From an uncultured Chthonomonadaceae bacterium (GTDB lineage: Bacteria > Armatimonadota > Chthonomonadetes > Chthonomonadales > CAJBBX01): a DNA stretch of 64,000 bases. Below, piece after piece: positions 210 to 12,005 of this stretch. How positions within the stretch are numbered: the stretch's first letter is position 1; each line of letters opens with the position of its first letter. Under the pieces are notes generated by a model. It saw only the letters and a program-made list of their open reading frames with translations. It was not told the DNA's origin and did not search any database. The translations under genes and the position numbers were made by a program. The DNA lies in assembly GCA_964519955.1 (NCBI GenBank), contig CAZFLM010000013.1, positions 33,238 to 97,237 on the forward strand. The letters run 5' to 3'.

Positions 210-1703
210 GTGAGATCGCGCATACTGCTAGGCCTGCTGTTCGGCGCCGCCGGTGGCTTCCTGGGGTACCTGCTTCAGGAGGTGTCGGTCCCGCACGACC
301 CCGTGCTGGACCAGACGCGCTCGCAGATGATGACCATCGGCCTGATGGTGGGCGGGCTCATCGGCATGGCGATCGGTGCGGTCGAGGGCGTTGCGGTCGG
401 GTCGCCACGCAAGCTGGCACAGGGCATGGTGCTCGGCGGCATCATCGGCGCCATCGGCGGCCTGTTCGGCATCTACCTCGGCTCGGCCGTGTATGCCATC
501 GCCCTCTTCGGCAAGGACCCGCGGTACATGGAGCAGAGCGGCAACATGCTCGACTTCGTGCACCGCGTCCTCGCCCGGGCGCTGGGCTGGACCTTCCTCG
601 GCGCTCTGCCTGGAGTGGCCGCCGGGGCCGCGACTCTCTCGCCCAAGCGCGCCACGCACGGGCTCATCGGCGGGCTCATCGGCGGGTTCCTGGGAGGCCT
701 GGTGTTCGACCTGGTGGCCAACCTGATCGCTAAGCCGGTAGCCGGGGTCTCGTCTGGGATGATCAATGGGCCGCGCGTCGTTGAAATCGGCGGCCCGGGC
801 CGCGCCATCGGCTTCACGATGATCGGAGCGCTGACGGGGCTGTTCATCGGCCTCGTCGAGGAGCTGCTGAAGCAGGGCTGGGTGCGCGTACTCGCCGGGC
901 GCAACGAGGGCAAGGACTACATCCTCTCCAAGGCGCTTACCGTCATCGGGCGCGACGAGCGGGCCGACGTGCCCGTCTACGGCGACCCGATGCTGCAGCC
1001 CCAGCACGCGGCAATCCGCGTCGAGGGCGGGCGCCACGTGCTGCTGGACGGCGGAGCGCCGCCGACGGCCGTGGTGAACGGACAGCTCACGCAGAACGGC
1101 CGTCACCTCCTGCGCGACGGCGACATGATCCAGCTCGGCCAGGTACGCCTGCTCTTCCGCGAGAAGGCCACCGCGAGCAAGATCGGGCGCCCCGCCACCG
1201 ACGTGGCGCCCGCTCCTGCCGGCGGCCTCTCCGCGATGCCATCGCACCTGTGCCCCTATTGCGGCGCGCAGAAGGATGCCCAGGGCAACTGCCTCTGCAG
1301 CGTGCCGGGAGCAGGAGCGGCCGGACCTGCCGCCGGACAGTGGACCCCGCCGGCGCCCGGCGCACCCATCAGCGTGATGCTGCCGGGCAGCACCTACGGA
1401 GCGCCAGCCGCCGCCATGGGCACCCAGTTGGTCGCGCTGGACGGGCCGTACGCCGGGCAGGTGTTCCTGCTCAAGCCGCAAGGCACCACCATCGGCCGCG
1501 ACCCGGCCCGCGATATCGCGCTGGCCGCCGACACCACGATCTCCCGCCGCCATGCCAGAATTGCCGAGGAAGGCGGACGCCACGTGGTGTACGATGAAGG
1601 GTCATCGAACGGAACCTTCGTGAACGGCGTCCGGCTCACGATGCAGCCGCTTGCCGTCGGAGATGTGGTACAGCTCGGGTCGAGTTCCTTCCGATATGAG
1701 TAG
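210..1703 (+). CDS. Membrane protein with Gly-zipper-like TM segments, two FHA domains and a Cys-cluster linker
   Basis: 497-aa ORF with a GTG start 4 nt after the preceding stop. The N-terminal ~230 aa hold repeated GxxxG-rich hydrophobic segments (GLLFGAAGGFLGYLL, GLMVGGLIGMAIGAVEG, GGIIGAIGGLFGIYLG, GLIGGLIGGFLGGLVF). These are followed by FHA 1 (VIGRDERADVPV..HAAIRVEGGRHVLLD), CPYCGAQKDAQGNCLC, and FHA 2 (TIGRD..SRRHARI..GSSNGTFVNG). Confidence 0.8.
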   Translation: MRSRILLGLLFGAAGGFLGYLLQEVSVPHDPVLDQTRSQMMTIGLMVGGLIGMAIGAVEGVAVGSPRKLAQGMVLGGIIGAIGGLFGIYLGSAVYAIALFGKDPRYMEQSGNMLDFVHRVLARALGWTFLGALPGVAAGAATLSPKRATHGLIGGLIGGFLGGLVFDLVANLIAKPVAGVSSGMINGPRVVEIGGPGRAIGFTMIGALTGLFIGLVEELLKQGWVRVLAGRNEGKDYILSKALTVIGRDERADVPVYGDPMLQPQHAAIRVEGGRHVLLDGGAPPTAVVNGQLTQNGRHLLRDGDMIQLGQVRLLFREKATASKIGRPATDVAPAPAGGLSAMPSHLCPYCGAQKDAQGNCLCSVPGAGAAGPAAGQWTPPAPGAPISVMLPGSTYGAPAAAMGTQLVALDGPYAGQVFLLKPQGTTIGRDPARDIALAADTTISRRHARIAEEGGRHVVYDEGSSNGTFVNGVRLTMQPLAVGDVVQLGSSSFRYE

Positions 1704-1887
1704 GGACGCTGCCCGTTGCGTCCCCTGACGCTGCTTGCTGCGTCCCAGTCCTCCGATAGACAGGGCCCGCCTCGCCGCCGGCCGCGTACCTATAGCACTG
1801 GTCCATCCATTCATAACCGAGGGCCGCGCACGCCACCAGACCGCACATCATCCGGCGGCGGCCCTCGATCTGCCAAGGAGCCTTTCT

Positions 1888-2268
1888 GTGCTGAGCGAGA
1901 GAACCCAACCTAACTACTCCCTGGGCGAGCCCGATCCCGCCGTGACGGCCCTCGCACGCAAAGCCGTGCCGCCGGACCAACTCGGGACCAGGCTCACGGG
2001 GATCGCGGGCCTCTACTGCGGCCACGTGTTCCCGCTGCCGGGAGAGGTGAACATGATCGGGCGAGACACGGTCTGCTCGGTCTCCCTCCACAACGACAAG
2101 ACTGCGTCCCGCATCCATGCCCGCATCGTGCTCGAGGATGCCGGCCACGTGCTCTACGATCAGGGATCGGCCAACGGGACGTTCGTCAACGGCGCCCTGG
2201 TGCGGACATGCTTGCTCGCGCCGGGCGACACGCTGCAGTGCGGCAGCACCCGCCTTCGCTACGAGTAG
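1888..2268 (+). CDS. Small single-FHA-domain protein
   Basis: This is the 3' part of ORF 1735..2268. AAGGAG at 1875-1880 lies 7 nt before the in-frame GTG at 1888. The translation MIGRDTVCSVSL..SRIHARIVLEDAGHVLYDQGSANGTFVNG matches FHA. The start is uncertain and could be as far upstream as 1735. Confidence 0.7.
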   Translation: MLSERTQPNYSLGEPDPAVTALARKAVPPDQLGTRLTGIAGLYCGHVFPLPGEVNMIGRDTVCSVSLHNDKTASRIHARIVLEDAGHVLYDQGSANGTFVNGALVRTCLLAPGDTLQCGSTRLRYE

Positions 2269-2295
2269 GACCACAATCCGGTAGGAGACAGGCAT

Positions 2296-3678
2296 ATGGA
2301 GGATCGGACCCAGCAGATCGGCCAACAGCCCATGCCGCCCGCGGGCGCCGGGGCCACACAGCAGATGAACCGGACGGTGATCGGCGGCCCGAACCTCGGA
2401 CAGACCGCGATGGGCGCGCCCGACCTGGCCCGCACGACCATGGGCGCTCCCATGCGCGCGCTCAGCCTGGAGGCGCTGCCGGGCAGCCGGCTCGCCTTCG
2501 CGCCGGAGCGCGGCCGCGAGCACCTCCTGCTCCAGGTCAAGGCGGACACCTCCGCCATCGGCCGGCGCATGCCGCTCAACGTCTGCCTCGTCATCGACCG
2601 CTCCGGGTCGATGGAGGGCGAGCCACTGGAGTACGTGAAGCGGGCCTGCGCCTACGTCGTCGACCTCCTCGAAGCCACCGACGTCCTCTCCATCGTCACG
2701 TTCGAGGAGCAGGTCGACGTCCTGATGCCCGCCCGCCGCGTGGTGAACAAGGCGCTCATCAAGGAGCATATCAACCGCATCCAGGCCGGCAACACGACGA
2801 ACCTCTACGACGGCATGCTCTCAGGCTGCATGCAGGTGGCCTCGCTGAACGCGCCCGGCTATCTGAACCGCGTGCTGCTGCTGACCGACGGCGAGCCGAC
2901 TTCAGGCATCAAGGACTTCGCGTCCATCGTCGGGCAGGTGCAGGAGCAGCGCAACCGGGGCGTTTCCATCACGGCGCTCGGGTTCGGCGCGGAGTACAAC
3001 GAGGAGCTGATGGCCGGCATCGCCCGGCGCGGCGGCGGCAACTACTACTACATCGCCCAGCCGATGCTCATCCCGGAGGTCTTCCGCAAGGAACTCGAGA
3101 CGCTGATGACCATCACGGCCAAGAACGTGCGCGTGCGCATCAACCTGCCGCGCGGCGTGCAGTGCCGCTACGTCTACGGCGTGCCGCAGCCCAAGATCGC
3201 CGCACGCACGGTCGAGTTCGAGCTGGCCGACATCGAGCGCGGCAAGGTCGTCAGCAACCTGAGCGAGCTGGAGTTCGACCGCCACGTGCCCGGCACCTAC
3301 CGGGTCGCCAAGGTGGACGTGACGTACGACGACGCCGTATCCGGCCGCACCGAGGTGCTGACCGCCGATGCCGTCATCGAGTTCGCCACCGATCGCGCGG
3401 CGGTCGAGGCCTCGAAGAACCCGACGGTGCAGAGCGAGCTGGAAGTTCACCTGGCATCGCGCAACCTCGAGAAGACGATGATGGGCATGCGCACCCAGCA
3501 ACTCACCGCGATGGGCGCCATGCAGGAGCTTCAGCGCACCCGCACCGTGCTGCAGCAGGCCGGCCGCGCGGAACAGGCCCGCGAGGTCACCCTGGCCATG
3601 GAGCAGCTCCAGCAAGGCGGCCAGGTCGAGAAGACCCTCATCGGCACGATCTACAACCTGGACAAGGGCAAGAAGTAG
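2296..3678 (+). CDS. von Willebrand factor type A (vWA) domain protein with intact MIDAS
   Basis: 460-aa ORF with AGGAGA upstream of the ATG. MIDAS-like residues are present: VIDRSGSM, GNTTNLYDG, LLLTDGEPTSG. The N-terminus is low-complexity and Thr/Gln-rich. The C-terminal tail is helical and Gln-rich. Confidence 0.85.
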   Translation: MEDRTQQIGQQPMPPAGAGATQQMNRTVIGGPNLGQTAMGAPDLARTTMGAPMRALSLEALPGSRLAFAPERGREHLLLQVKADTSAIGRRMPLNVCLVIDRSGSMEGEPLEYVKRACAYVVDLLEATDVLSIVTFEEQVDVLMPARRVVNKALIKEHINRIQAGNTTNLYDGMLSGCMQVASLNAPGYLNRVLLLTDGEPTSGIKDFASIVGQVQEQRNRGVSITALGFGAEYNEELMAGIARRGGGNYYYIAQPMLIPEVFRKELETLMTITAKNVRVRINLPRGVQCRYVYGVPQPKIAARTVEFELADIERGKVVSNLSELEFDRHVPGTYRVAKVDVTYDDAVSGRTEVLTADAVIEFATDRAAVEASKNPTVQSELEVHLASRNLEKTMMGMRTQQLTAMGAMQELQRTRTVLQQAGRAEQAREVTLAMEQLQQGGQVEKTLIGTIYNLDKGKK

Positions 3679-3776
3679 CCCGGTGTAGGCCGGTCTGGGA
3701 CCCGGTCAGACGAGGCCATGTCCCGACCTCGGATACCTGCTCACTCGAACGCGCCGGCTCTGGGAGGATTGGGCAG

Positions 3777-4640
3777 ATGTGCACGCAGGTTCGCTTGGCG
3801 GCTCTCGTCGTATCCGTGTGCATGGCTATGGGCGTGGCGCACGCGGCGGCGCCGCCCCCCGACGGGTCCTTCGCCTACAGCAAGTTCGCCAAGACGACGG
3901 GGCTCAAGATCGTGGGTAACGTTGTGGTCGTTCGCGACGTGCTCCGACTGACTCCTGACGTAGAGTGGCGGTCCGGCGCGGTCTGGTATGCGACCAGGGT
4001 GCCGGTCGCCGCGGGGTTCCGAACCACCTTCACGTTCCGGATCACGGCGGCGGACGACTCGTCTGCGGACGGTCTGGCGTTCGTCGTCCAGAACTCGGCG
4101 AGCGATGCCCTCGGCGGACAGGGAGGCAACATCGGGTACGGACAGTGCATCGAGTTGCCCAATCCGGGCGGTATCCCGAACAGCCTGGCGATCGAGTTCG
4201 ATACGTACCCGAACTCGTCCGTCAACGGCCTGTTCACGGTCGACGACCCGAACGACAACCACATCAGCGTCCACACGCGCGGGGCCGAAGCCAACGGCAG
4301 CGACGAGTTCTACTCGCTCGGGTCGGCGCCGTCGGTCGCGGACCTGAAGGATGGCAACGTGCATACGGCGACGATCACGTACACGCCGGGCACGTTGACG
4401 GTCCTGCTGGACGGCGCCAAGCTCGTCGTGCCATACCGATTCGCGGCGGGCGGCAAGTACGCGAACGGCTCGGACGCGCCGGGGCTCGTGCTCGAGGGAG
4501 GGACCGCGTGGGTCGGCATCACTTCGAGCACCGGGATCAGCCACTCGAACCATGACATCCTGAGCTGGTCGTTCGGCCCGGCTCAGGCGCCAGTCGCGCC
4601 GGGCGGTCCCAGACGACCGTCTGGCCGCAATGCCAACTAG
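3777..4640 (+). CDS. Secreted L-type (legume-like) lectin domain protein
   Basis: Only the last 287 codons of the 810-aa ORF 2208..4640 look genuine. GGGAGG precedes the ATG at 3777. A signal peptide is present (LAALVVSVCMAMGVAHAAA). The body reads RLTPDVEWRSGAVWY..FRTTFTFRI..ADGLAFVVQN..GGNIGYG..NSLAIEFDTYPN..DPNDNHISVH..WVGITSSTG, matching the L-type lectin pattern. Confidence 0.7.
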   Translation: MCTQVRLAALVVSVCMAMGVAHAAAPPPDGSFAYSKFAKTTGLKIVGNVVVVRDVLRLTPDVEWRSGAVWYATRVPVAAGFRTTFTFRITAADDSSADGLAFVVQNSASDALGGQGGNIGYGQCIELPNPGGIPNSLAIEFDTYPNSSVNGLFTVDDPNDNHISVHTRGAEANGSDEFYSLGSAPSVADLKDGNVHTATITYTPGTLTVLLDGAKLVVPYRFAAGGKYANGSDAPGLVLEGGTAWVGITSSTGISHSNHDILSWSFGPAQAPVAPGGPRRPSGRNAN

Positions 4641-4847: not shown

Positions 4848-5840
4848 ATGACCACGGAATCGACACAGGCGCTGCCCACTGGCGGACAGATGATCCCGGC
4901 GCCGCAGCCCGCCGCGCGGCCGGATGCCACCCAGATGGGGACATCCGTACCGTGCCCCGTCTGCCGGACCGCGAACACGGGCCTGGAAACCTACTGCATG
5001 GAGTGCGGCTTCCTGCTGGCGTCCACGCCGGGCGAAGCTGCTGCGTCGCAGGAGACGCCCTCGCCCGAGCTGATCGAGACCGGCTCCGGCAGGCGGTTCG
5101 CGCTGAAGCCAGGCGCCAACATGGTGGGACGCGAGAACTGCGACGTGCTGCTGATGGACCCGACTGTCTCGCGGCGACATGCCCGCATCGACGTGGGGCC
5201 CGGCGGCGTCTCGGTGACGGACCTCGGCAGCTCCAACGGGACGCAGGTGGACGCGAAGCGCCTGGAGGCCCAGCAGCCCGCCGCAGCCGTCGAGAACGCG
5301 GCGCTGAAGTTCGGCAACACGTCGTTCACGATCGTCGGCATCACGGTGACAGCGAAGGGGTTCCTGCCCAGCGCGGCTCCCGCGCCGCCCGCAGGCGAGC
5401 CGGAGAAGCCGAAGGCCGCTCTGCCTGCAGCGCCGTCGGCCCAGCCCGGCGCCGCGGCGCCGCCTCCGCCCCCGCCGACCGCCGACGCTGCGGTGGCCTG
5501 CCTGAAGCCCACGGGCCCCGGCGGCCAGGAGATCCGCATTCCGTCCGGCCAGATCACGGTTGGCAGGCGCGCGGGCAACAGTGTGGTGCTCACGGGCGAC
5601 CCGTACGTATCCGGCCAGCACGCCGAGATCCTCGCCGATGCCACCGGCTGCTACCTGACCGACGTGGGAAGCACGAACGGCAGCGTGGTGAATGGTGAGC
5701 GGCTGGAGCCGGGCCGCAAGCAGCTCCTGCTCGACGGCGACGAGGTGAAACTCGGGCAGACGTCGTTCGTATTCGAGACACTCGAAGGGCCGCCGACCGA
5801 ATCGGCGGGTGGACCCATCCGGATGGGCGGTGGCCAATGA
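4848..5840 (+). CDS. Zinc-ribbon plus dual-FHA protein
   Basis: 330-aa ORF with GGGGGAGG upstream. It has CPVCRTANTGLETYCMECG (a Cys4 ribbon), FHA 1 (MVGRENCDVLL..SRRHARI..GSSNGTQVD), a Pro/Ala-rich linker, and FHA 2 (ITVGRRAGNSVVL..SGQHAEI..GSTNGSVVNG). Confidence 0.8.
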   Translation: MTTESTQALPTGGQMIPAPQPAARPDATQMGTSVPCPVCRTANTGLETYCMECGFLLASTPGEAAASQETPSPELIETGSGRRFALKPGANMVGRENCDVLLMDPTVSRRHARIDVGPGGVSVTDLGSSNGTQVDAKRLEAQQPAAAVENAALKFGNTSFTIVGITVTAKGFLPSAAPAPPAGEPEKPKAALPAAPSAQPGAAAPPPPPPTADAAVACLKPTGPGGQEIRIPSGQITVGRRAGNSVVLTGDPYVSGQHAEILADATGCYLTDVGSTNGSVVNGERLEPGRKQLLLDGDEVKLGQTSFVFETLEGPPTESAGGPIRMGGGQ

Positions 5841-6733
5841 GCGACGAAGCGCTGGTCGAGGCTGTCGAGGTGTCCGAGCCGCCCGCGGAGGACGAGCGGG
5901 AGATCACCGCCAAGTTCTCGCGCGACGACCTGGTGCGCGGCTGGCGGGAGCGGCAGGAGCGCAAGCCGCGCGTCGTGCCCATCGTCAAGTTCGCCGCGAA
6001 GACGGACCTCGGGCGCGTCCGCGAGAACAACGAGGACAAGTTCGACTACTACGAGCCGGAGGATCCGACGCTGCTGGCCGCTCGCGGGTGCCTCTACGCG
6101 GTGGCGGACGGCATGGGCGGGCACGCGGCTGGGCAGATCGCCAGCGAGTTGGCGCTGAAGACCGCCATCTCTGCGTATTACGATGGTGCGAACGAGAGCA
6201 TCGCCCACGCGCTGCTCGAAGCCATCCAGTGCGCCAACGACACGGTGTTCGCGGTTGCCCACATGGTGCCGGACCGCAGCGGCATGGGCACGACGCTCAC
6301 GGTGGCCGTGCTGGCGGAGGACCGCGTCTATGTCGGCCAGGTGGGCGACAGCCGGGCGTATCTCATCCGCGGCGACGAGGTCCGCCAGGTGACCCAGGAC
6401 CACTCGTGGGTAGCCGAGCAGGTGCGCATGGGCGGCCTCACCGAGGAGGACGCCGAGGTCCACCCGTGGCGCAACGTCATCACGCGGTCCATCGGCAACC
6501 AGGACACGGTGGAAGCCGACGTCTTCGTCGAGGAAGCGCAGACGGGCGACATCTGGGTATTGTGTTCAGACGGGCTTACCGGCCACGTGAAGGCCGACGA
6601 GATCCGCGCAATCGCATCCGTGCACGCACCGTCGGAGGCATGCCGGCAGCTCATCGAGTTGGCCGGAGCCCGCGGCGGGCGTGACAACATTACTGTGGCG
6701 GTGATCGCCATTCGGGGGTTTGACGGTGACTGA
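5837..6733 (+). CDS. PP2C-family Ser/Thr protein phosphatase
   Basis: 298-aa ORF. Its ATG overlaps the preceding stop (ATGA at 5837-5840). Motifs present: RENNEDKF, AVADGMGGHAAG, GMGTTL, VGDSRAYL, CSDGLT, GGRDNITV. Confidence 0.9.
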   Translation: MSDEALVEAVEVSEPPAEDEREITAKFSRDDLVRGWRERQERKPRVVPIVKFAAKTDLGRVRENNEDKFDYYEPEDPTLLAARGCLYAVADGMGGHAAGQIASELALKTAISAYYDGANESIAHALLEAIQCANDTVFAVAHMVPDRSGMGTTLTVAVLAEDRVYVGQVGDSRAYLIRGDEVRQVTQDHSWVAEQVRMGGLTEEDAEVHPWRNVITRSIGNQDTVEADVFVEEAQTGDIWVLCSDGLTGHVKADEIRAIASVHAPSEACRQLIELAGARGGRDNITVAVIAIRGFDGD

Positions 6734-7385
6734 CGAGGAACGGCAGCAGCGCGGACGGATCGTCTCGCGGTGGCTGCGGCATCATCCGGAGGAGGCCGGC
6801 CTGGAGCTGTCGCCCGCGGGTTGGGTTGACATCGCGCGGGTGGTGGCCGCCCTGGAGGAGCGAGAGCTGCCCACGAGCCGCGAGGATCTGGTCCGCCTCG
6901 CAAGGCTGGACGACAAGCCGCGCTTCGAGGTGGAGGACGACAAGATCCGCGCGCGTTACGGCCACTCGCTGCAACTGGGGCAGGAGCCGAACGCGGGAAT
7001 CCCGCCGCCGGCGCTTTACCACGGAACCTCGCGGCGACTTCTGCCGATGATACTAGCAAAAGGCCTCGGCCCGCGCGGCAAGACGTCCTACGTGCAGCTC
7101 TCGCCGAAGCCTGCCGCCGCGCGCGAGGCTGGGATGAAGCACGACAGCGAGCCCATCGTGCTGGAGATCGCCGCCCAGCGCGCCCACGAGGCGGGAGTGA
7201 AGTTCTACCCGCGCGGCAAGGGCGTCTGGCAGAGCGGCCCGGTGCCGCCGGAGTTCCTGGCCATCCGCGAGATGGTGAGCCCGGACCCAGAAGAGCGGGC
7301 TGCCAGATCGGGACCGGCCTCCGGCCAGCGGCGGCGCGTGCCACCCAAGGGTGGCTTCCTGAAGAAGACCGACCGAGACACATAG
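6720..7385 (+). CDS. kptA: RNA 2'-phosphotransferase, Tpt1/KptA family, with basic C-terminal extension
   Basis: 221-aa ORF with a TTG start that overlaps the PP2C gene by 14 nt. It aligns by eye with E. coli KptA: SRWLRHHPEE, GWVDI, KPRFEVEDDKIRARYGHS, LYHGTS, SYVQLS, PIVLEI, GVWQSGPVPPEFL. About 40 extra Arg/Pro/Lys-rich residues follow at the C-terminus. Confidence 0.85.
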   Translation: MTVTDEERQQRGRIVSRWLRHHPEEAGLELSPAGWVDIARVVAALEERELPTSREDLVRLARLDDKPRFEVEDDKIRARYGHSLQLGQEPNAGIPPPALYHGTSRRLLPMILAKGLGPRGKTSYVQLSPKPAAAREAGMKHDSEPIVLEIAAQRAHEAGVKFYPRGKGVWQSGPVPPEFLAIREMVSPDPEERAARSGPASGQRRRVPPKGGFLKKTDRDT

Positions 7386-7445
7386 GTGCGCCGCCCCATC
7401 GGTTGACCGATCGCCCGCGATAGGGCGCAAAGCCGTCGACAAGCG

Positions 7446-9533
7446 ATGAACTCGCATACTCACTACGAGATACTCGGACTGCGCGAAACCGCGACGGCCG
7501 AGGACATCAAGAAGCGCTACCACGACCTGGCGCGCCGGTTCCATCCGGACGTCGCGGGCACGGGCAACGCGACGCGTTTTCGCGCCATCCAGGATGCGTA
7601 CGCCGTCCTGTCGGACCCGGCTGCGCGCCAATCCTACGATGCAACGCTCCCAAAGGCTGGTCGTCCTGCGGCCGGCCCATCGAGCGCAACCGCCACCGCC
7701 GCGCCTCCAACGCACCCCGGTGCATCGCCGCATGAGCCGCAGGTCGACGACGTCATCGCCGGCAAGTACCGCATCCTGCGCGAGATCGCCCGCTCCAACG
7801 ATGTCGTCTACGAGGCCGTGGACCAGACGATGGGACGCCGCCTCGCGGTGAAGGAGTTGGTCCTTCCCGGCAACCTGACGGGGACAGCGCGGCGCGAGCG
7901 GATCGAACGGTTCAACCGGGAAGCCCGGGCCGCGGGCCGTCTCTCGCATCCGAACATCGTCACCGTGTACGACTATGGCGAGGACAACGGCCGGTACTTC
8001 ATCGCGATGGAGTACCTGGAGGGCGGCACGCTGCGCGACCGGATACAGGGCGGCACGAGCCTCCCGCCGGACGAGGCCATCGGCATCGCGTGCCAGGTGC
8101 TGGGCGCCCTCACCCACGCCCACGCGCACAAAGTCGTCCACCGCGACGTGAAGCCGGACAACATCCACATCCAGCCGGACGGCCAGGTGAAGCTGACGGA
8201 CTTCGGCATCGCGCGCCTCACGGAGGAAGCCTCGCTCACCGGCGACGGCCAGGTGTTCGGCACGCCGAGCTACATGTCGCCCGAGCAGATCGAGGGGCGT
8301 GGCATCGACCTGCGCTCCGACCTCTTTTCGCTGGGCGTCGTGCTCTACGAGATGCTGAGCGGGCACAAGCCGTTCACCGGCGACAGCGTCGTCAGCATCA
8401 CGTACAACATCATGCACGCCGAGCCGCCGCCGATGACCGGCATGTCGTTCGCCGTCGAGCAGGTCGTGATGCGCTCCCTGTGCAAGGACCCGCACGGCCG
8501 GTTCCAGTCCGCCGAGGAGATGCGCCGGGCGCTGCGGACGGCCGACACCACGCCCGCCCTGTTCCTCACCAGCTCGATGAACACGGGCGGCACGCTCTAC
8601 GGGCAGACGGCCGCCGTGCCGTACACCATGGGGACGCCGGGCACGATCACGGGCGGCTACGGCATGCCGAGTTCGCCGCCCGTCGGCGGGCCATTCGGCG
8701 CTCCGCAGCACCCCGCCCCGGCGCCGCAGGCCGGACCGTTCGCGACGTGGGGACAGCCGCCGGCGCCAGCCCCGCCGCCGCCACCGGGCTTCGGCAGGCA
8801 GCGCGCCCCTCGGCGCGCCGTCGGGCCCGGCACGCGCGCGTTCTTCTCCGTGCTGATGGCCAGCCTGGTCATCTCCGGCGTGGTCATCGGCTTCATGCTG
8901 CTGTTCGTGCGCTCCTACAGCCAGTACCAGACGCAGGCGGGCCAGCGCAAGCTGATGGCCACGCTGAACAGCGGCTCCGAGCGGTACAACGTCGGCGATC
9001 TCGACGGCGCCGCCTCGGCCTTCGACACCGTGCTCCGGCAGGATCGCGACGGAACCGCCGGGCGCATCGCGCGAACCAACCTCGCCATCACACTCAACAA
9101 GATGGGCAAGCTGGCCTACGAGCGGGGCGACCTGCGCCGCGCCGAGGAGTACTTCGGCAGGGCTCAGGACCTGTACGCCAATCCGAACGACGTGATGGGC
9201 GACAAGGACCAGGAGGCCCTGGATACCGCGCGCCAGAACCTGCAAGCCACCTACAACCGCCTGGGCGTGCGAGCGGACGCGTCGGGGGGCGGCGACAGCG
9301 GGCCACCGGGTCTTTCGGGTGGCGTGTCGTCGGGCGATACGGACGCCAGCCTCCGGCAGCGCATGGGCCAGGCGCAGTCCTCCCTACAGGCCGGCAACCA
9401 GGCCTATCAGCAGGGTAACATGGAGCAGGCCCGCAAGCAATGGCTCGATGCGGTCAATGCTGCTCCCGGATCTCCGGCCGCGCTCGAAGCCCAGCAGAAC
9501 CTCGACAGAACGTCCAACTCGCTCGAAGAGTAG
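7446..9533 (+). CDS. J-domain / Hanks-type Ser/Thr kinase / TM / TPR fusion protein
   Basis: 695-aa ORF. The N-terminal J domain reads YEILGLRETATAEDIKKRYHDLARRFHPDV..AYAVLSDPAARQSYD. The kinase core shows AVKEL, HRDVKPDNIHI, DFGIAR and GTPSYMSPEQ. A Pro-rich linker follows, then one TM segment (FFSVLMASLVISGVVIGFMLLFV) and a TPR-like C-terminal region. Confidence 0.85.
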   Translation: MNSHTHYEILGLRETATAEDIKKRYHDLARRFHPDVAGTGNATRFRAIQDAYAVLSDPAARQSYDATLPKAGRPAAGPSSATATAAPPTHPGASPHEPQVDDVIAGKYRILREIARSNDVVYEAVDQTMGRRLAVKELVLPGNLTGTARRERIERFNREARAAGRLSHPNIVTVYDYGEDNGRYFIAMEYLEGGTLRDRIQGGTSLPPDEAIGIACQVLGALTHAHAHKVVHRDVKPDNIHIQPDGQVKLTDFGIARLTEEASLTGDGQVFGTPSYMSPEQIEGRGIDLRSDLFSLGVVLYEMLSGHKPFTGDSVVSITYNIMHAEPPPMTGMSFAVEQVVMRSLCKDPHGRFQSAEEMRRALRTADTTPALFLTSSMNTGGTLYGQTAAVPYTMGTPGTITGGYGMPSSPPVGGPFGAPQHPAPAPQAGPFATWGQPPAPAPPPPPGFGRQRAPRRAVGPGTRAFFSVLMASLVISGVVIGFMLLFVRSYSQYQTQAGQRKLMATLNSGSERYNVGDLDGAASAFDTVLRQDRDGTAGRIARTNLAITLNKMGKLAYERGDLRRAEEYFGRAQDLYANPNDVMGDKDQEALDTARQNLQATYNRLGVRADASGGGDSGPPGLSGGVSSGDTDASLRQRMGQAQSSLQAGNQAYQQGNMEQARKQWLDAVNAAPGSPAALEAQQNLDRTSNSLEE

Positions 9534-9578: not shown

Positions 9579-10712
9579 GTGCGTCGACGTCCCTCCCCCA
9601 AGCCGCGCCGCGCCACCGCGCCCGCCGAGATCCCCGAGGTCCAGATCCTTCTCAAGCAGGGCGACGTCGCCGCCGCCAACTCGCTCCTGCGGATAGCGAC
9701 CGGCGACGACCGCGCGGCCGCGAAGGCAGCCCGCGCCGCCCTCTACACGCTCAGACAAGCGGGGATCGAGCCGGAGCCGGTGGAGGCGCCCGTGGAACCC
9801 GCGGAACCCGCGCCCGCGGACACCGAGCACCGCAGCTACCGTGCCTGGGCGTGCCATCCGAGCCCGCACGGCGACATCGTGGTCATCTTCGGCACACCCG
9901 TCTCTCGGGGCAGGCGCATCCAGCTCTGGACGGCGGAGGCAACCCTGTTCGGCGGGCTGGCCGATCTGACGCACGCATCGCTGACGGCGGAGGAGTTCGA
10001 TCGCCATCTGGCCGAGATGGCGCTGGACGACGAGGCGCCCCTCTACGAGACGACGGTGGAGCACGCGAAGGCGCTCGTCGTCGAGGCGAACGAGGTGGCG
10101 CGGAAGCGTGGGTCGCTGACCCCGACGGGCTACTACGAGTGGCGCGGCGACGTGGGCGAAGGCGGCTCCGGCGCGCGGCCCCGCATCTACGACCTGCTGG
10201 ATGCCGACGCCGTGGTGGCCGACCTGGGCCTGCCCCGCGATCCGGAGAGCGCGCTGGACAACAAGCGGCGGGTCACCTGGATGCTCAATCCGGACACCGT
10301 GGGACCGTGGCTCAAGCCGGTCGCGGAGGCCGTGCACAGCCCGGTGGCGATCGACGACTCCCAGCGCAAGAGGATGGCCGAGCGTGTGTTCGAGGAGGCC
10401 GCCGACGCGATCTTCGATGCAGATGCCCGCCGAGCCTGGAGGCGTATGCTCGAGGAGAGCGCCGCCGCCCTGGCCGTTCTGGGCGAGGACGAAGCCGCCC
10501 GGCAGGGCCTCTACCACGCGCTGCAGTTCGACGACCGGCCGGCGCGCGACATCCCGATGGCCATGCACCTCGTCCGCCGCACCGTGGGCGTGGTGATGAC
10601 CTATCTGCTCCGTGAGGAACGCAGGGCCCGCGGCGAGACCGTCGAGGCTGACGATGAGGCGCCACCCGAGGACGACCAGCCGGAGCCGCCGAGCCTGATC
10701 GAGCGGGCGTAG
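9579..10712 (+). CDS. Hypothetical protein (acidic, helical), last gene of the FHA/kinase array
   Basis: 377-aa ORF. GGAAGGAG lies 7 nt upstream of the GTG at 9579, which is 45 nt after the kinase stop. I recognised no domain. Composition is more protein-like than the antisense ORF 9549..10937. Confidence 0.55.
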   Translation: MRRRPSPKPRRATAPAEIPEVQILLKQGDVAAANSLLRIATGDDRAAAKAARAALYTLRQAGIEPEPVEAPVEPAEPAPADTEHRSYRAWACHPSPHGDIVVIFGTPVSRGRRIQLWTAEATLFGGLADLTHASLTAEEFDRHLAEMALDDEAPLYETTVEHAKALVVEANEVARKRGSLTPTGYYEWRGDVGEGGSGARPRIYDLLDADAVVADLGLPRDPESALDNKRRVTWMLNPDTVGPWLKPVAEAVHSPVAIDDSQRKRMAERVFEEAADAIFDADARRAWRRMLEESAAALAVLGEDEAARQGLYHALQFDDRPARDIPMAMHLVRRTVGVVMTYLLREERRARGETVEADDEAPPEDDQPEPPSLIERA

Positions 10713-10741
10713 GTCTGCCGCGACCTTCCAGGCCGGCGATA

Positions 10742-10806
10742 ACGTAACGATGCTACAAATCGGTCGGAGGATTCCGGCGCGCTGCCGTCGTACATAATCG
10801 TTACAT
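10742..10806 (+). promoter_or_regulatory. AT-richer patch with inverted repeat upstream of pntAA (candidate promoter/operator)
   Basis: ACGTAACGAT (10742-10751) and ATCGTTACAT (10797-10806) are 9/10 complementary. TACAAA and CATAAT (-10-like hexamers) lie inside this locally AT-rich stretch. The pntAA GTG is at 10830. Confidence 0.3.
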
Positions 10807-10829
10807 CCCACCCATCGGAGGGCGGCAGA

Positions 10830-12005
10830 GTGCTGGTTGGTGTTCCGGCGGAAACGTATCCTGGCGAGAAGCGGGCCGCGTTGGTTCCCGCATCCTTGGC
10901 GGCGCTGAAGAAGGCCAAGATCGACGTGGCGGTGCAAGCCGGGCTCGGTCTGGCCGCGGGCTACACGGACGCTGCCTACGCCGAAGCAGGCGCCGAGGTC
11001 GTGGCGGACCGCGCCGAGATCCTGCGCCGCTCCGACGTACTGCTGCAGGTGCGCGCGCTCGGAGCGGACGCCGACGGGCTCGCCGCCGACCTGCCGAACC
11101 TGCGCGCCGGGCGAGTCGTCATCGCCACGATGGACCCGCTCTCCGAGCCGCAGCCCGCCACCAAGGCGGCCGAGGCCGGGGTGACCGCATTCGCGCTGGA
11201 GCTGCTTCCCCGCATCACCCGCGCGCAGTCGATGGACGTGCTCTCCAGCCAGGCCAACCTCGCCGGCTACAAGGCCGTGATCATCGCGGCCGACTCGCTA
11301 GCCAAGCTCCTCCCGATGATGATGACCGCCGCCGGCACCATCGCGCCCTCGAAGGTCTTCGTCATCGGCGCGGGCGTCGCGGGGCTCCAGGCCATCGCCA
11401 CGGCCCGGCGCCTCGGCGCGGTGGTCAGCGCCTACGACGTGCGCCCCGCGGTGAAGGAGCAGGTCGAGAGCCTGGGCGGCCGGTTCGTCGAGCTGGAGAT
11501 CGAGGCCGGCGACTCGCAGACCTCGGGCGGCTACGCGAAGGCCATGGGCGAGGAGTTCTACCGCAAACAGGCCGAGCTGATGACGCGGGTGGTCGCCGAG
11601 AACGACGTGGTCATCACCACCGCCGCCATCCCGGGCCAGAAGGCGCCCACGCTCGTGACCAAGGCGATGGTCGAGGCGATGCAGCCCGGCGCCATCGTGG
11701 TGGACATCGCGGCGGAGCGCGGCGGCAACTGCGAGTTGACCGTGCCGGGCGAGACCATCGACCACAACGGCGTGACGATCGTGGGTCCGCTGAACCTGCC
11801 CTCCACGGTCCCGTTCCACGCCAGCCAGCTCTACGCCAAGAACATCGTGACGTTCCTGCTGCACCTGGTGAAGGACGGCGCGCTGAACATCGACACGGCC
11901 GACGAGATCACCCGCGACACGCTGGTGACGCAGGGCGGCCAGGTCGTGAACGCCCGGGTGCGCGAGAAGCTGGGCCTGGAGCCGCTGCCCGCACCGGGGG
12001 CCTAG
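10830..12005 (+). CDS. pntAA: NAD(P) transhydrogenase subunit alpha part 1
   Basis: 391-aa ORF with GGAGGG 7 nt upstream of the GTG. It has the alanine-dehydrogenase-like fold motifs: VIGAGVAGLQAIATARRLGA, TTAAIPGQKAP. Confidence 0.9.
   Translation: MLVGVPAETYPGEKRAALVPASLAALKKAKIDVAVQAGLGLAAGYTDAAYAEAGAEVVADRAEILRRSDVLLQVRALGADADGLAADLPNLRAGRVVIATMDPLSEPQPATKAAEAGVTAFALELLPRITRAQSMDVLSSQANLAGYKAVIIAADSLAKLLPMMMTAAGTIAPSKVFVIGAGVAGLQAIATARRLGAVVSAYDVRPAVKEQVESLGGRFVELEIEAGDSQTSGGYAKAMGEEFYRKQAELMTRVVAENDVVITTAAIPGQKAPTLVTKAMVEAMQPGAIVVDIAAERGGNCELTVPGETIDHNGVTIVGPLNLPSTVPFHASQLYAKNIVTFLLHLVKDGALNIDTADEITRDTLVTQGGQVVNARVREKLGLEPLPAPGA

Follow-up and report, generated by a model that had tools for sequence, protein, structure and literature searches.

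A J domain fused to the N-terminus of a transmembrane Hanks-type kinase in a subclade of Chthonomonadales

A J domain and a receptor kinase in one reading frame

The DNA analyzed here is a 64-kb stretch (hereafter the window, 64,000 nucleotides in full) of contig CAZFLM010000013.1 from an uncultured Chthonomonadaceae bacterium, and the gene under study, referred to below as the J-kinase gene, encodes a J domain joined to a kinase. From N- to C-terminus, the predicted protein consists of a J domain, a tether of ~30 aa, a Hanks-type kinase domain, a Pro-rich linker of ~90 aa, one transmembrane (TM) helix and a TPR-like ectodomain (Table 1). An earlier reading of the sequence (the original prediction) had placed the J domain, kinase, Pro-rich linker, TM helix and TPR-like region in a single open reading frame (ORF), and the ORF list, Pfam and AlphaFold2 agree with it. 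The motifs which it quoted, namely YEILGL, RRFHPDV, AYAVLSDPAARQSYD, AVKEL, HRDVKPDN, DFG and SPE, are all present in the translation. We consider it almost certain that the fusion is real and is translated as one protein.

An in-frame stop 5' of the J-kinase gene ends at position 7406, and the ATG at 7446 is the only ATG, GTG or TTG codon in this frame ahead of codon 125. The next in-frame start candidates, GTG 7818 and ATG 7830, are located inside the kinase N-lobe, past the family-invariant strand REIARSNDVVYEA, and initiation at either codon would leave out the first beta-strands of the kinase, which do not vary in the family. Because ATG 7446 is the sole start ahead of the kinase N-lobe, the kinase cannot be produced without the J domain; a true start downstream of the J region, which had been named as a result that would overturn the fusion, is therefore ruled out.

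The G+C content at third codon positions (GC3) is 0.81-0.95 in the J-kinase frame, indicating that the frame is coding; overall G+C content in the window is 66-71%. An antisense ORF of 730 aa (7053-9245, minus strand) covers most of the J-kinase gene. Open frames of this kind are a usual feature of DNA of ~69% G+C, and this one most likely stems from the base composition and does not encode a protein. The plus-strand gene is identified as the real one of the two by its codon-position GC (GC3 up to 0.95) and its homologues. A promoter and terminator scan returned 0 promoters, and terminator-like sites occurred at chance level.

Table 1. Position of the J-kinase gene, its parts and its neighbors in the window. 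aa, amino acids; dN/dS, ratio of nonsynonymous to synonymous substitution rates; pLDDT, predicted local distance difference test.
Feature	Position	Strand	Evidence or remark
Whole J-kinase gene	7446..9533	+	ATG start, 695 aa; ORF list, Pfam; identical protein P0001 in public collection
J domain, residues 4-68, four helices	7455..7649	+	Pfam, AlphaFold2, conservation, dN/dS
HPD tripeptide H33-P34-D35, predicted Hsp70 ATPase-stimulating motif	7542..7550	+	codons cat ccg gac
Disordered Ala/Pro tether between J domain and kinase, ~30 residues	7650..7745	+	pLDDT <50 at residues 71-98; no start codon inside
Hanks-type Ser/Thr kinase domain, residues 101-372	7746..8561	+	Pfam Pkinase, PDB relatives, catalytic residues
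Atypical 'Gly-rich' loop without glycine, residues 112-124, REIARSNDVVYEA	7779..7817	+	StkP alignment
Disordered Pro-rich juxtamembrane linker, residues 373-465	8562..8840	+	pLDDT <50 at residues 375-457
Single TM helix, residues 466-488, FFSVLMASLVISGVVIGFMLLFV	8841..8909	+	top Kyte-Doolittle window, 2.62
TPR-like helical-repeat ectodomain, residues 489-695	8910..9530	+	Pfam TPR_2/TPR_16/TPR_14, AlphaFold2 hairpins
FHAx2 gene	210-1703	+	Pfam
FHA gene	1735-2268	+	Pfam
VWA gene	2296-3678	+	Pfam
Secreted lectin-like ORF, 287 aa	3777-4640	+	N-terminal signal-like hydrophobic segment; legume-lectin beta-barrel domain, Pfam E 1e-24
Double-FHA protein gene, candidate phospho-Thr reader or substrate	4848..5840	+	Pfam FHA x2, E 3.6e-34
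PP2C Ser/Thr phosphatase gene	5837..6733	+	Pfam PP2C E 1.4e-15; overlaps FHA stop and KptA start
KptA/Tpt1-family RNA 2'-phosphotransferase gene, directly upstream of J-kinase	6720..7385	+	Pfam PTS_2-RNA E 2.8e-30
377-aa protein gene, directly downstream of J-kinase	9579..10712	+	no Pfam, NCBIfam or PADLOC match

The J domain

The first ~65 residues had been described as a canonical J domain with an HPD motif, and the profile search bears this out. The Pfam DnaJ profile (PF00226) matches residues 5-65 (profile positions 1-63 of 63) with an E value of 6.1e-19 and 68.3 bits against a cutoff of 27.8. The HPD tripeptide is invariant in all four types of J-kinase described below and aligns with the HPD of E. 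coli DnaJ, as do the basic helix II (KKRYHDLARRF) directly ahead of it and Phe45 in helix III. The AlphaFold2 model, which was built on a 49-sequence alignment and has a mean pLDDT of 81, shows a J fold with helices at residues 6-10, 18-32, 42-56 and 58-67 at pLDDT >90, and sets the HPD between the second and third of these helices. Across the J region, 41 of 72 columns are invariant among the four J-kinases.

No G/F region, zinc finger or DnaJ C-terminal domain was detected in J-kinase by Pfam, which returned no DnaJ_CXXCXGXG or DnaJ_C match, or by NCBIfam, whose DnaJ equivalogs match only residues ~1-90 and fall far under their cutoffs. As none of these domains is present, J-kinase belongs to the class C (type III) J-domain proteins, a group known for extreme architectural diversity. 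A J domain uses its HPD loop and helix II to bind Hsp70-ATP and triggers hydrolysis of the ATP, whereupon Hsp70 becomes locked onto adjacent extended segments. The HPD, the basic helix II, Phe45, the predicted J fold and the purifying selection described below make the J domain of J-kinase look functional, and it is probably a working recruiter of DnaK.

The kinase domain and its glycine-less loop

The tether which joins the J domain to the kinase is 28-41% identical among relatives, with a dN/dS of 0.30-0.52. Beyond it, the Pfam Pkinase profile (PF00069) matches residues 120-357 with an E value of 3.3e-49 and 168 bits (cutoff 31.7), and AlphaFold2 models the kinase confidently at residues 101-374. 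The closest relatives of this domain in the PDB are StkP, Stk1, PknB and PknA (E ~1e-50, TM-score 0.8-0.9). All of 49 orthologues share K136, E159, H232-R233-D234, N239, D252-F253-G254 and S278-P279-E280.

The Pfam match starts only at profile position 14. Where StkP reads IGRGGMADVY, the J-kinase loop reads IARSNDVVY, so that GxGxxG is replaced by A-R-S-N-D-V with zero glycines and the loop is one residue shorter. This sequence is invariant in the 49 orthologues and is shared by the whole Chthonomonadales kinase family, J-bearing or not. The claim of a complete kinase core thus stands in part: AVKEL, HRDVKPDN, DFG and SPE are present, and the profile score and the invariant catalytic residues are those of a Hanks-type kinase, but the Gly-rich loop of subdomain I lacks any glycine. 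Judged from its sequence, the loop could be an unusual nucleotide-binding solution or could mark a non-canonical kinase.

The top NCBIfam kinase match is the Stk1/PknB PASTA kinase family NF033483, which scores 306 bits, under its cutoff of 450, and covers residues 102-369 only. No PASTA repeats were matched in J-kinase by Pfam or NCBIfam, and the protein is not a PASTA kinase. In PADLOC, many models of the anti-phage defense kinase PD-T4-6 match the kinase domain, with E values down to 1e-93, and the neighbors of J-kinase gave one weak PP2C match only (PDC-M21C, E 4e-9). A role as a defense kinase was considered; we judged the PD-T4-6 matches to be generic Hanks-kinase similarity. The context is a conserved FHA/PP2C cluster adjoining pntAB.

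Juxtamembrane linker, TM helix and ectodomain

As anticipated in the original prediction, the kinase is followed by a Pro-rich linker, one TM helix and a TPR-like C-terminus. The linker region contains two hydrophobic motifs, ALFLTS (residues 370-375, ~8553-8570) and GPFATWGQ (residues 429-436, ~8730-8753). P431, F432 and W435 hardly vary across the kinase-family alignment, within an otherwise fast-evolving linker. ALFLTS and GPFATWG are candidate docking sites for a partner, which may be an FHA protein, DnaK or another protein. Altogether, ~137 of the 695 residues of J-kinase are predicted to be disordered.

AlphaFold2 predicts a long helix which begins at residue 461. The TM segment has five Arg residues in its N-terminal flank and three K/R residues in its C-terminal flank. 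The TPR-like C-terminal domain is predicted to lie outside the cytoplasm, because there is a single TM helix, there is no signal peptide and the ATP-dependent kinase is N-terminal to the TM helix. In this ectodomain, TPR_2 scores 31.7 bits against a cutoff of 27 at about residues 549-577 and TPR_14 matches weakly at about residues 647-682, while AlphaFold2 predicts helical hairpins at 519-606 and 632-690 with a disordered insert at 611-632. The name TPR as used here denotes these weak Pfam matches together with a predicted helical-repeat fold.

A J-bearing clade within a widespread kinase family

The kinase-linker-TM-TPR protein is a widespread and conserved receptor kinase of the Chthonomonadales which is normally found without a J domain. 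Family members are ~590-660 aa in length and 42-58% identical to the window protein at 85% query coverage. Among the best 120 matches, PF00226 is present in only four clusters formed at 90% identity: P0001, which is the window protein (one sequence); P0002 (70% identity, three sequences, locus L151); P0003 (67% identity, one sequence, locus L150); and P0004 (55% identity, nine sequences, loci L001, L002 and L003, and also the type of L006 and L070). All other members in the alignment begin 1-3 residues ahead of the kinase domain. Neighbor-joining trees of 120 family members were built from the kinase domain and from the whole protein without its J region. Both group the four J-bearing proteins together as a clade, and this monophyly in the absence of the J region indicates a single acquisition. 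The J domain has been kept across an amino acid divergence of ~25% (kinase) to ~45% (whole protein).

These four clusters also bear on whether a wrong start, a frameshift or a chimeric assembly has joined a separate J gene to a kinase gene. Nothing was found in favor of such an artefact, although no obvious intergenic Shine-Dalgarno sequence is seen. The 14 J-kinase sequences come from NCBI, ENA, Logan and JGI assemblies, and the recurrence of the same fusion in these independent assemblies excludes an assembly artefact. The fusion recurs with a variable linker sequence in four independent lineages and sources, and J-less orthologues have no separate J gene alongside. This explanation is effectively refuted, and we give it almost no credence.

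Between the four J-kinase genes, dN/dS calculated by the Nei-Gojobori method is 0.13-0.27 for the J domain, 0.10-0.24 for the kinase, 0.30-0.57 for the linkers and 0.25-0.71 for the ectodomain, values which are semi-quantitative only as dS is near saturation. The J domain is clearly constrained at the sequence level and appears to be under purifying selection. It could still be supposed that the J domain is a functionless passenger, gained by neutral accretion or now decaying, given its very narrow distribution and a GC3 slightly lower than in the kinase region. Its dN/dS is nevertheless as low as that of the kinase domain, the HPD is invariant, the domain is kept in a monophyletic clade across deep divergence, and the GC3 difference is inside the range of the 5' ends of other genes. 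We regard a passenger as very unlikely; both this explanation and that of an artefact are poorly supported.

Only five positions outside the J region set the J clade apart and none of them is at a conserved kinase position, so the J domain has been attached to an otherwise unchanged kinase. For the same reasons these substitutions were rejected as a candidate J/DnaK docking surface on the kinase. J-clade genomes have 67-70% GC and the sampled non-J orthologues 52-59% GC. The fusion is genuine and lineage-specific, and selection has kept it within a single subclade of high-GC Chthonomonadales (Armatimonadota).

Origin of the J domain

The closest J domains elsewhere are 49-58% identical to that of J-kinase and share its unusual FHPDVA and HYE-LG features. 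They are carried by Chthonomonadales/Armatimonadota proteins of 395-490 aa with the layout J domain, disordered linker, TPR (loci L007, L009-L015 and L071), and sequence similarity makes proteins of this kind the likely donors of the kinase-fused J domain. As an observation in its own right, this Armatimonadota family, in which a long disordered Pro/Ser/Ala linker separates the J domain from the TPR region, is found at L007 (2528-3823), L009-L015, L020, L023, L024 and L071. In L011, L013 and L015, the J-linker-TPR gene is immediately preceded by another gene with a J domain (227-279 aa), in tandem with it. The J-linker-TPR proteins recall P58IPK with the domain order reversed.

Two other origins were considered. 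A J-domain hidden Markov model (HMM) applied to all frames of the 8 kb on either side of the J-less kinases of L004 and of Chthonomonas calidirosea (L005) gave no match, and fusion of an adjacent J gene is therefore ruled out. The dip in GC3 over the J region was rejected as a sign of recent foreign origin, as it is within the range of the first 68 codons of other genes.

Rarity of the architecture

The original prediction had not recognized this arrangement as one described in bacteria, and within the scope of our surveys and of the literature searched this holds. The surveys are partial, covering relatives of the J domain, patterns in GTDB and metagenome data, plasmids, the PDB and literature rather than a full census of proteins with both PF00226 and PF00069. 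When residues 1-100 were searched with phmmer against 1.84 billion representatives, a kinase HMM found no kinase domain in the best 150 of 65,459 J matches. J-pattern scans returned 64 loci in 185,579 GTDB species genomes and 80 in 241 million JGI metagenome records; only two of these loci (L006 and L070) are J domain-kinase fusions, and both are of the P0004 type. A tblastn search of residues 1-372 against PLSDB (7.3 Gb) gave 2146 matches, among which no co-linear J domain and kinase was found on plasmids. In the PDB, the only chains which match both domains co-linearly are human DNAJB1-PRKACA chimeras. No bacterial fusion of a J domain to a Hanks-type kinase appears in the literature searched, which includes surveys of Ser/Thr kinase (STK) architectures in prokaryotes and cyanobacteria and a survey of 280,000 J-domain proteins. 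Within this scope, a transmembrane receptor kinase with an N-terminal J domain is rare and apparently undescribed in bacteria.

Comparison with known systems

A natural protein with both a Ser/Thr kinase and a J domain is known in GAK (auxilin-2), which has an N-terminal kinase, PTEN-like and clathrin-binding regions and a C-terminal J domain. GAK is soluble and eukaryotic, and its J domain acts on clathrin coats and not on the kinase. J-kinase has the reverse domain order and no PTEN or clathrin-binding domain by Pfam, and does not qualify as a GAK/auxilin-type protein.

In appearance, J-kinase is most like DNAJB1-PRKACA (J-PKAc) of fibrolamellar carcinoma (PDB 4wb7, 8fe2), which likewise has a J domain N-terminal on a eukaryotic-type kinase in one polypeptide and is the only solved chain to align co-linearly with both domains of the J-kinase model (390 columns). 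This closest known parallel was absent from the original prediction. J-PKAc arises somatically in humans as a pathological fusion to a soluble AGC kinase with no TM helix and no sensor, in which the J domain abuts the kinase via a helix; J-kinase, in contrast, is natural, inherited and selected, is a bacterial receptor kinase and has a disordered tether of 30 residues. The N-terminal J domain of J-PKAc recruits Hsp70 in an HPD-dependent manner that is abolished by H33Q, and this recruitment has been proposed to stabilize the fusion protein (PMC6533061).

In mode of action, the closest parallel may be E. coli DjlA, which by analogy is the best bacterial functional precedent. Both DjlA and J-kinase have a membrane-tethered cytoplasmic J domain without a classical client-binding domain. 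DjlA, which is membrane-anchored, switches on the Rcs phosphorelay by loosening contacts between IgaA and RcsD, and for this it requires DnaK and GrpE as well as its own J domain (PMC11709261). With its N-terminal TM segment, TerB-like domain and C-terminal J domain, DjlA is a protein of its own and acts in trans on a His-Asp phosphorelay (IgaA-RcsD), whereas the J domain of J-kinase is N-terminal and a covalent part of a Ser/Thr kinase.

J-kinase shares with the receptor kinases PknB, Stk1 and StkP the order of kinase, juxtamembrane linker, single TM helix and extracytoplasmic repeat sensor, as well as genomic linkage to FHA and PP2C genes. It differs from them in having a TPR-like sensor in place of PASTA repeats, a Gly-less P-loop and the N-terminal J domain. 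A bacterial STK fused to an HSP70-like domain is described for Pirellula (Krupa & Srinivasan 2005, PMC1262709); there it is the Hsp70 itself that is attached, C-terminally, whereas J-kinase carries a J domain. ERdj4 is reported to load BiP onto the transmembrane stress kinase IRE1 and thereby to repress it (PMC5733394). In ERdj4-BiP-IRE1 and in P58IPK-PKR/PERK, parts of the Hsp70 system are wired to kinases as in J-kinase, but as separate, eukaryotic proteins.

Genomic context of the kinase

The gene order YjeF-FHA-FHAx2-(FHA)-VWA-FHAx2-PP2C-KptA-kinase is kept in L150 (P0003, with a J domain) and in L004 (P0005, no J domain), although L004 is without the bracketed single-FHA gene. The KptA gene overlaps the PP2C stop by 14 nt in the window and is also found between PP2C and the kinase in L004 (7279-7953, with a gap of 47 bp to the kinase), L150 (7340-7987) and L151 (2266-2925). 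The short contig of L151 (P0002, with a J domain) shows only the FHAx2-PP2C-KptA-kinase-pntA part of this order, and non-J orthologues have a matching FHA-PP2C-KptA-kinase context.

The most divergent type of J-kinase, P0004, is located outside the FHA-PP2C-KptA cluster in L001, L002 and L003, where a Maf and a Zn-ribbon gene lie upstream and a downstream gene of the 377-aa type is kept. J-kinase is thus retained even when uncoupled from the phosphatase/FHA neighborhood.

Given that the conserved cluster of the kinase also has genes for a VWA protein, a PP2C and several FHA proteins, the J domain might act in trans, bringing DnaK to FHA/VWA substrates or partners, as GAK/auxilin does on clathrin coats, or DnaK might itself be a kinase substrate. 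The extended Pro-rich tether would give the J domain the necessary reach, and such a role accommodates the suggestion in the original prediction that chaperones are recruited to FHA-bound substrates. Against this, the same cluster is present with J-less kinases, no J-clade-specific change was seen in the neighbor genes, and nothing was found to indicate DnaK as a substrate. We think trans-targeting decidedly unlikely.

A possible role in DnaK recruitment

We propose that J-kinase is a membrane-anchored class C J protein which, through its cis-tethered J domain, loads DnaK onto the kinase complex, a proposal to which we give an even chance. The HPD loop and basic helix II would dock DnaK-ATP and trigger ATP hydrolysis, and DnaK would then clamp onto the nearest extended segment, J-kinase having no client-binding domain of its own. 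The primary client would be the cytoplasmic parts of the kinase itself, meaning the disordered juxtamembrane linker (ALFLTS, GPFATWG) and/or the kinase domain. Bound DnaK might restrain or reset kinase activation or the binding of FHA partners, and kinase output would then depend on both free DnaK, a measure of the cytoplasmic proteostasis state, and the periplasmic TPR-like sensor. This specific model of a cis-regulatory client is tentative, a possibility that we hold less probable than not.

We infer DnaK recruitment and its target, whether the kinase itself or FHA-bound substrates, from sequence and by analogy, and several points weigh against the cis-tethered proposal. No sequence feature separates a cis client from a trans client. 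DnaK is not encoded within the 64-kb window. Given its Gly-less P-loop, the kinase may not bind ATP in the normal way or be conventionally active, and the near-saturated dS tempers the evidence for selection on the J domain. The clade is tiny, and the closest non-J orthologues all manage without a J domain, so that any added function is dispensable for the basic role of the kinase.

The J domain could instead act in cis for biogenesis or stability, with DnaK folding, stabilizing or helping to insert a long, partly disordered kinase and having no signaling role. The Hsp70 stabilization proposed for J-PKAc (PMC6533061) and the extent of predicted disorder in J-kinase are consistent with such a role, and the higher GC content of the J clade hints at a different physiology or proteome. 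Dozens of orthologues, however, have the same disordered linkers and kinase core without a J domain, and no compensating destabilizing changes are seen in the J clade. We consider this explanation unlikely.

A more elaborate form of the cis-tethered proposal is a proteostasis-gated receptor kinase, in which the J domain would keep DnaK on the juxtamembrane region and the kinase would fire once unfolded proteins titrate DnaK away. We regard this as speculative and quite improbable. If true, it would be a bacterial Ser/Thr-kinase counterpart of BiP/ERdj4-IRE1 or of DnaK-sigma32 titration within one polypeptide, and it would combine what the TPR-like domain senses in the periplasm with folding stress in the cytoplasm.

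J domains and Hanks-type kinases are each ordinary, and the new point is their naturally evolved and selected fusion. Its significance is limited by a narrow distribution in a few lineages of uncultured, soil-type Chthonomonadales, by the diversity already known among class C J proteins and by a function that is predicted only. The fusion can be read as a 'Rosetta stone' linking the DnaK machine with Ser/Thr phosphosignaling, and as a natural counterpart of the oncogenic J-PKAc. It also comes with built-in controls in the form of many close orthologues with an identical kinase core and gene neighborhood but no J domain, and these offer a clean way to ask what tethered Hsp70 recruitment does to a kinase.

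Other genes at the locus

The 377-aa protein encoded directly downstream of J-kinase is 27-28% identical to the products of genes 3' of the kinase in L004 (J-less, 9804-10865) and L001 (J-bearing, 10108-11175), giving a family of ~355-377 aa. The family is absent from L150 and L151, the closest relatives of the window, where pntA follows the kinase directly; in the window, pntA, pntAB and pntB lie beyond the 377-aa gene.

In the window, the lectin-like ORF separates the VWA gene from the FHAx2 gene that follows it; at the matching position in L150 and L004 it is absent. It is embedded in a longer ORF of 810 aa (2208-4640) which overlaps the VWA gene in another frame.

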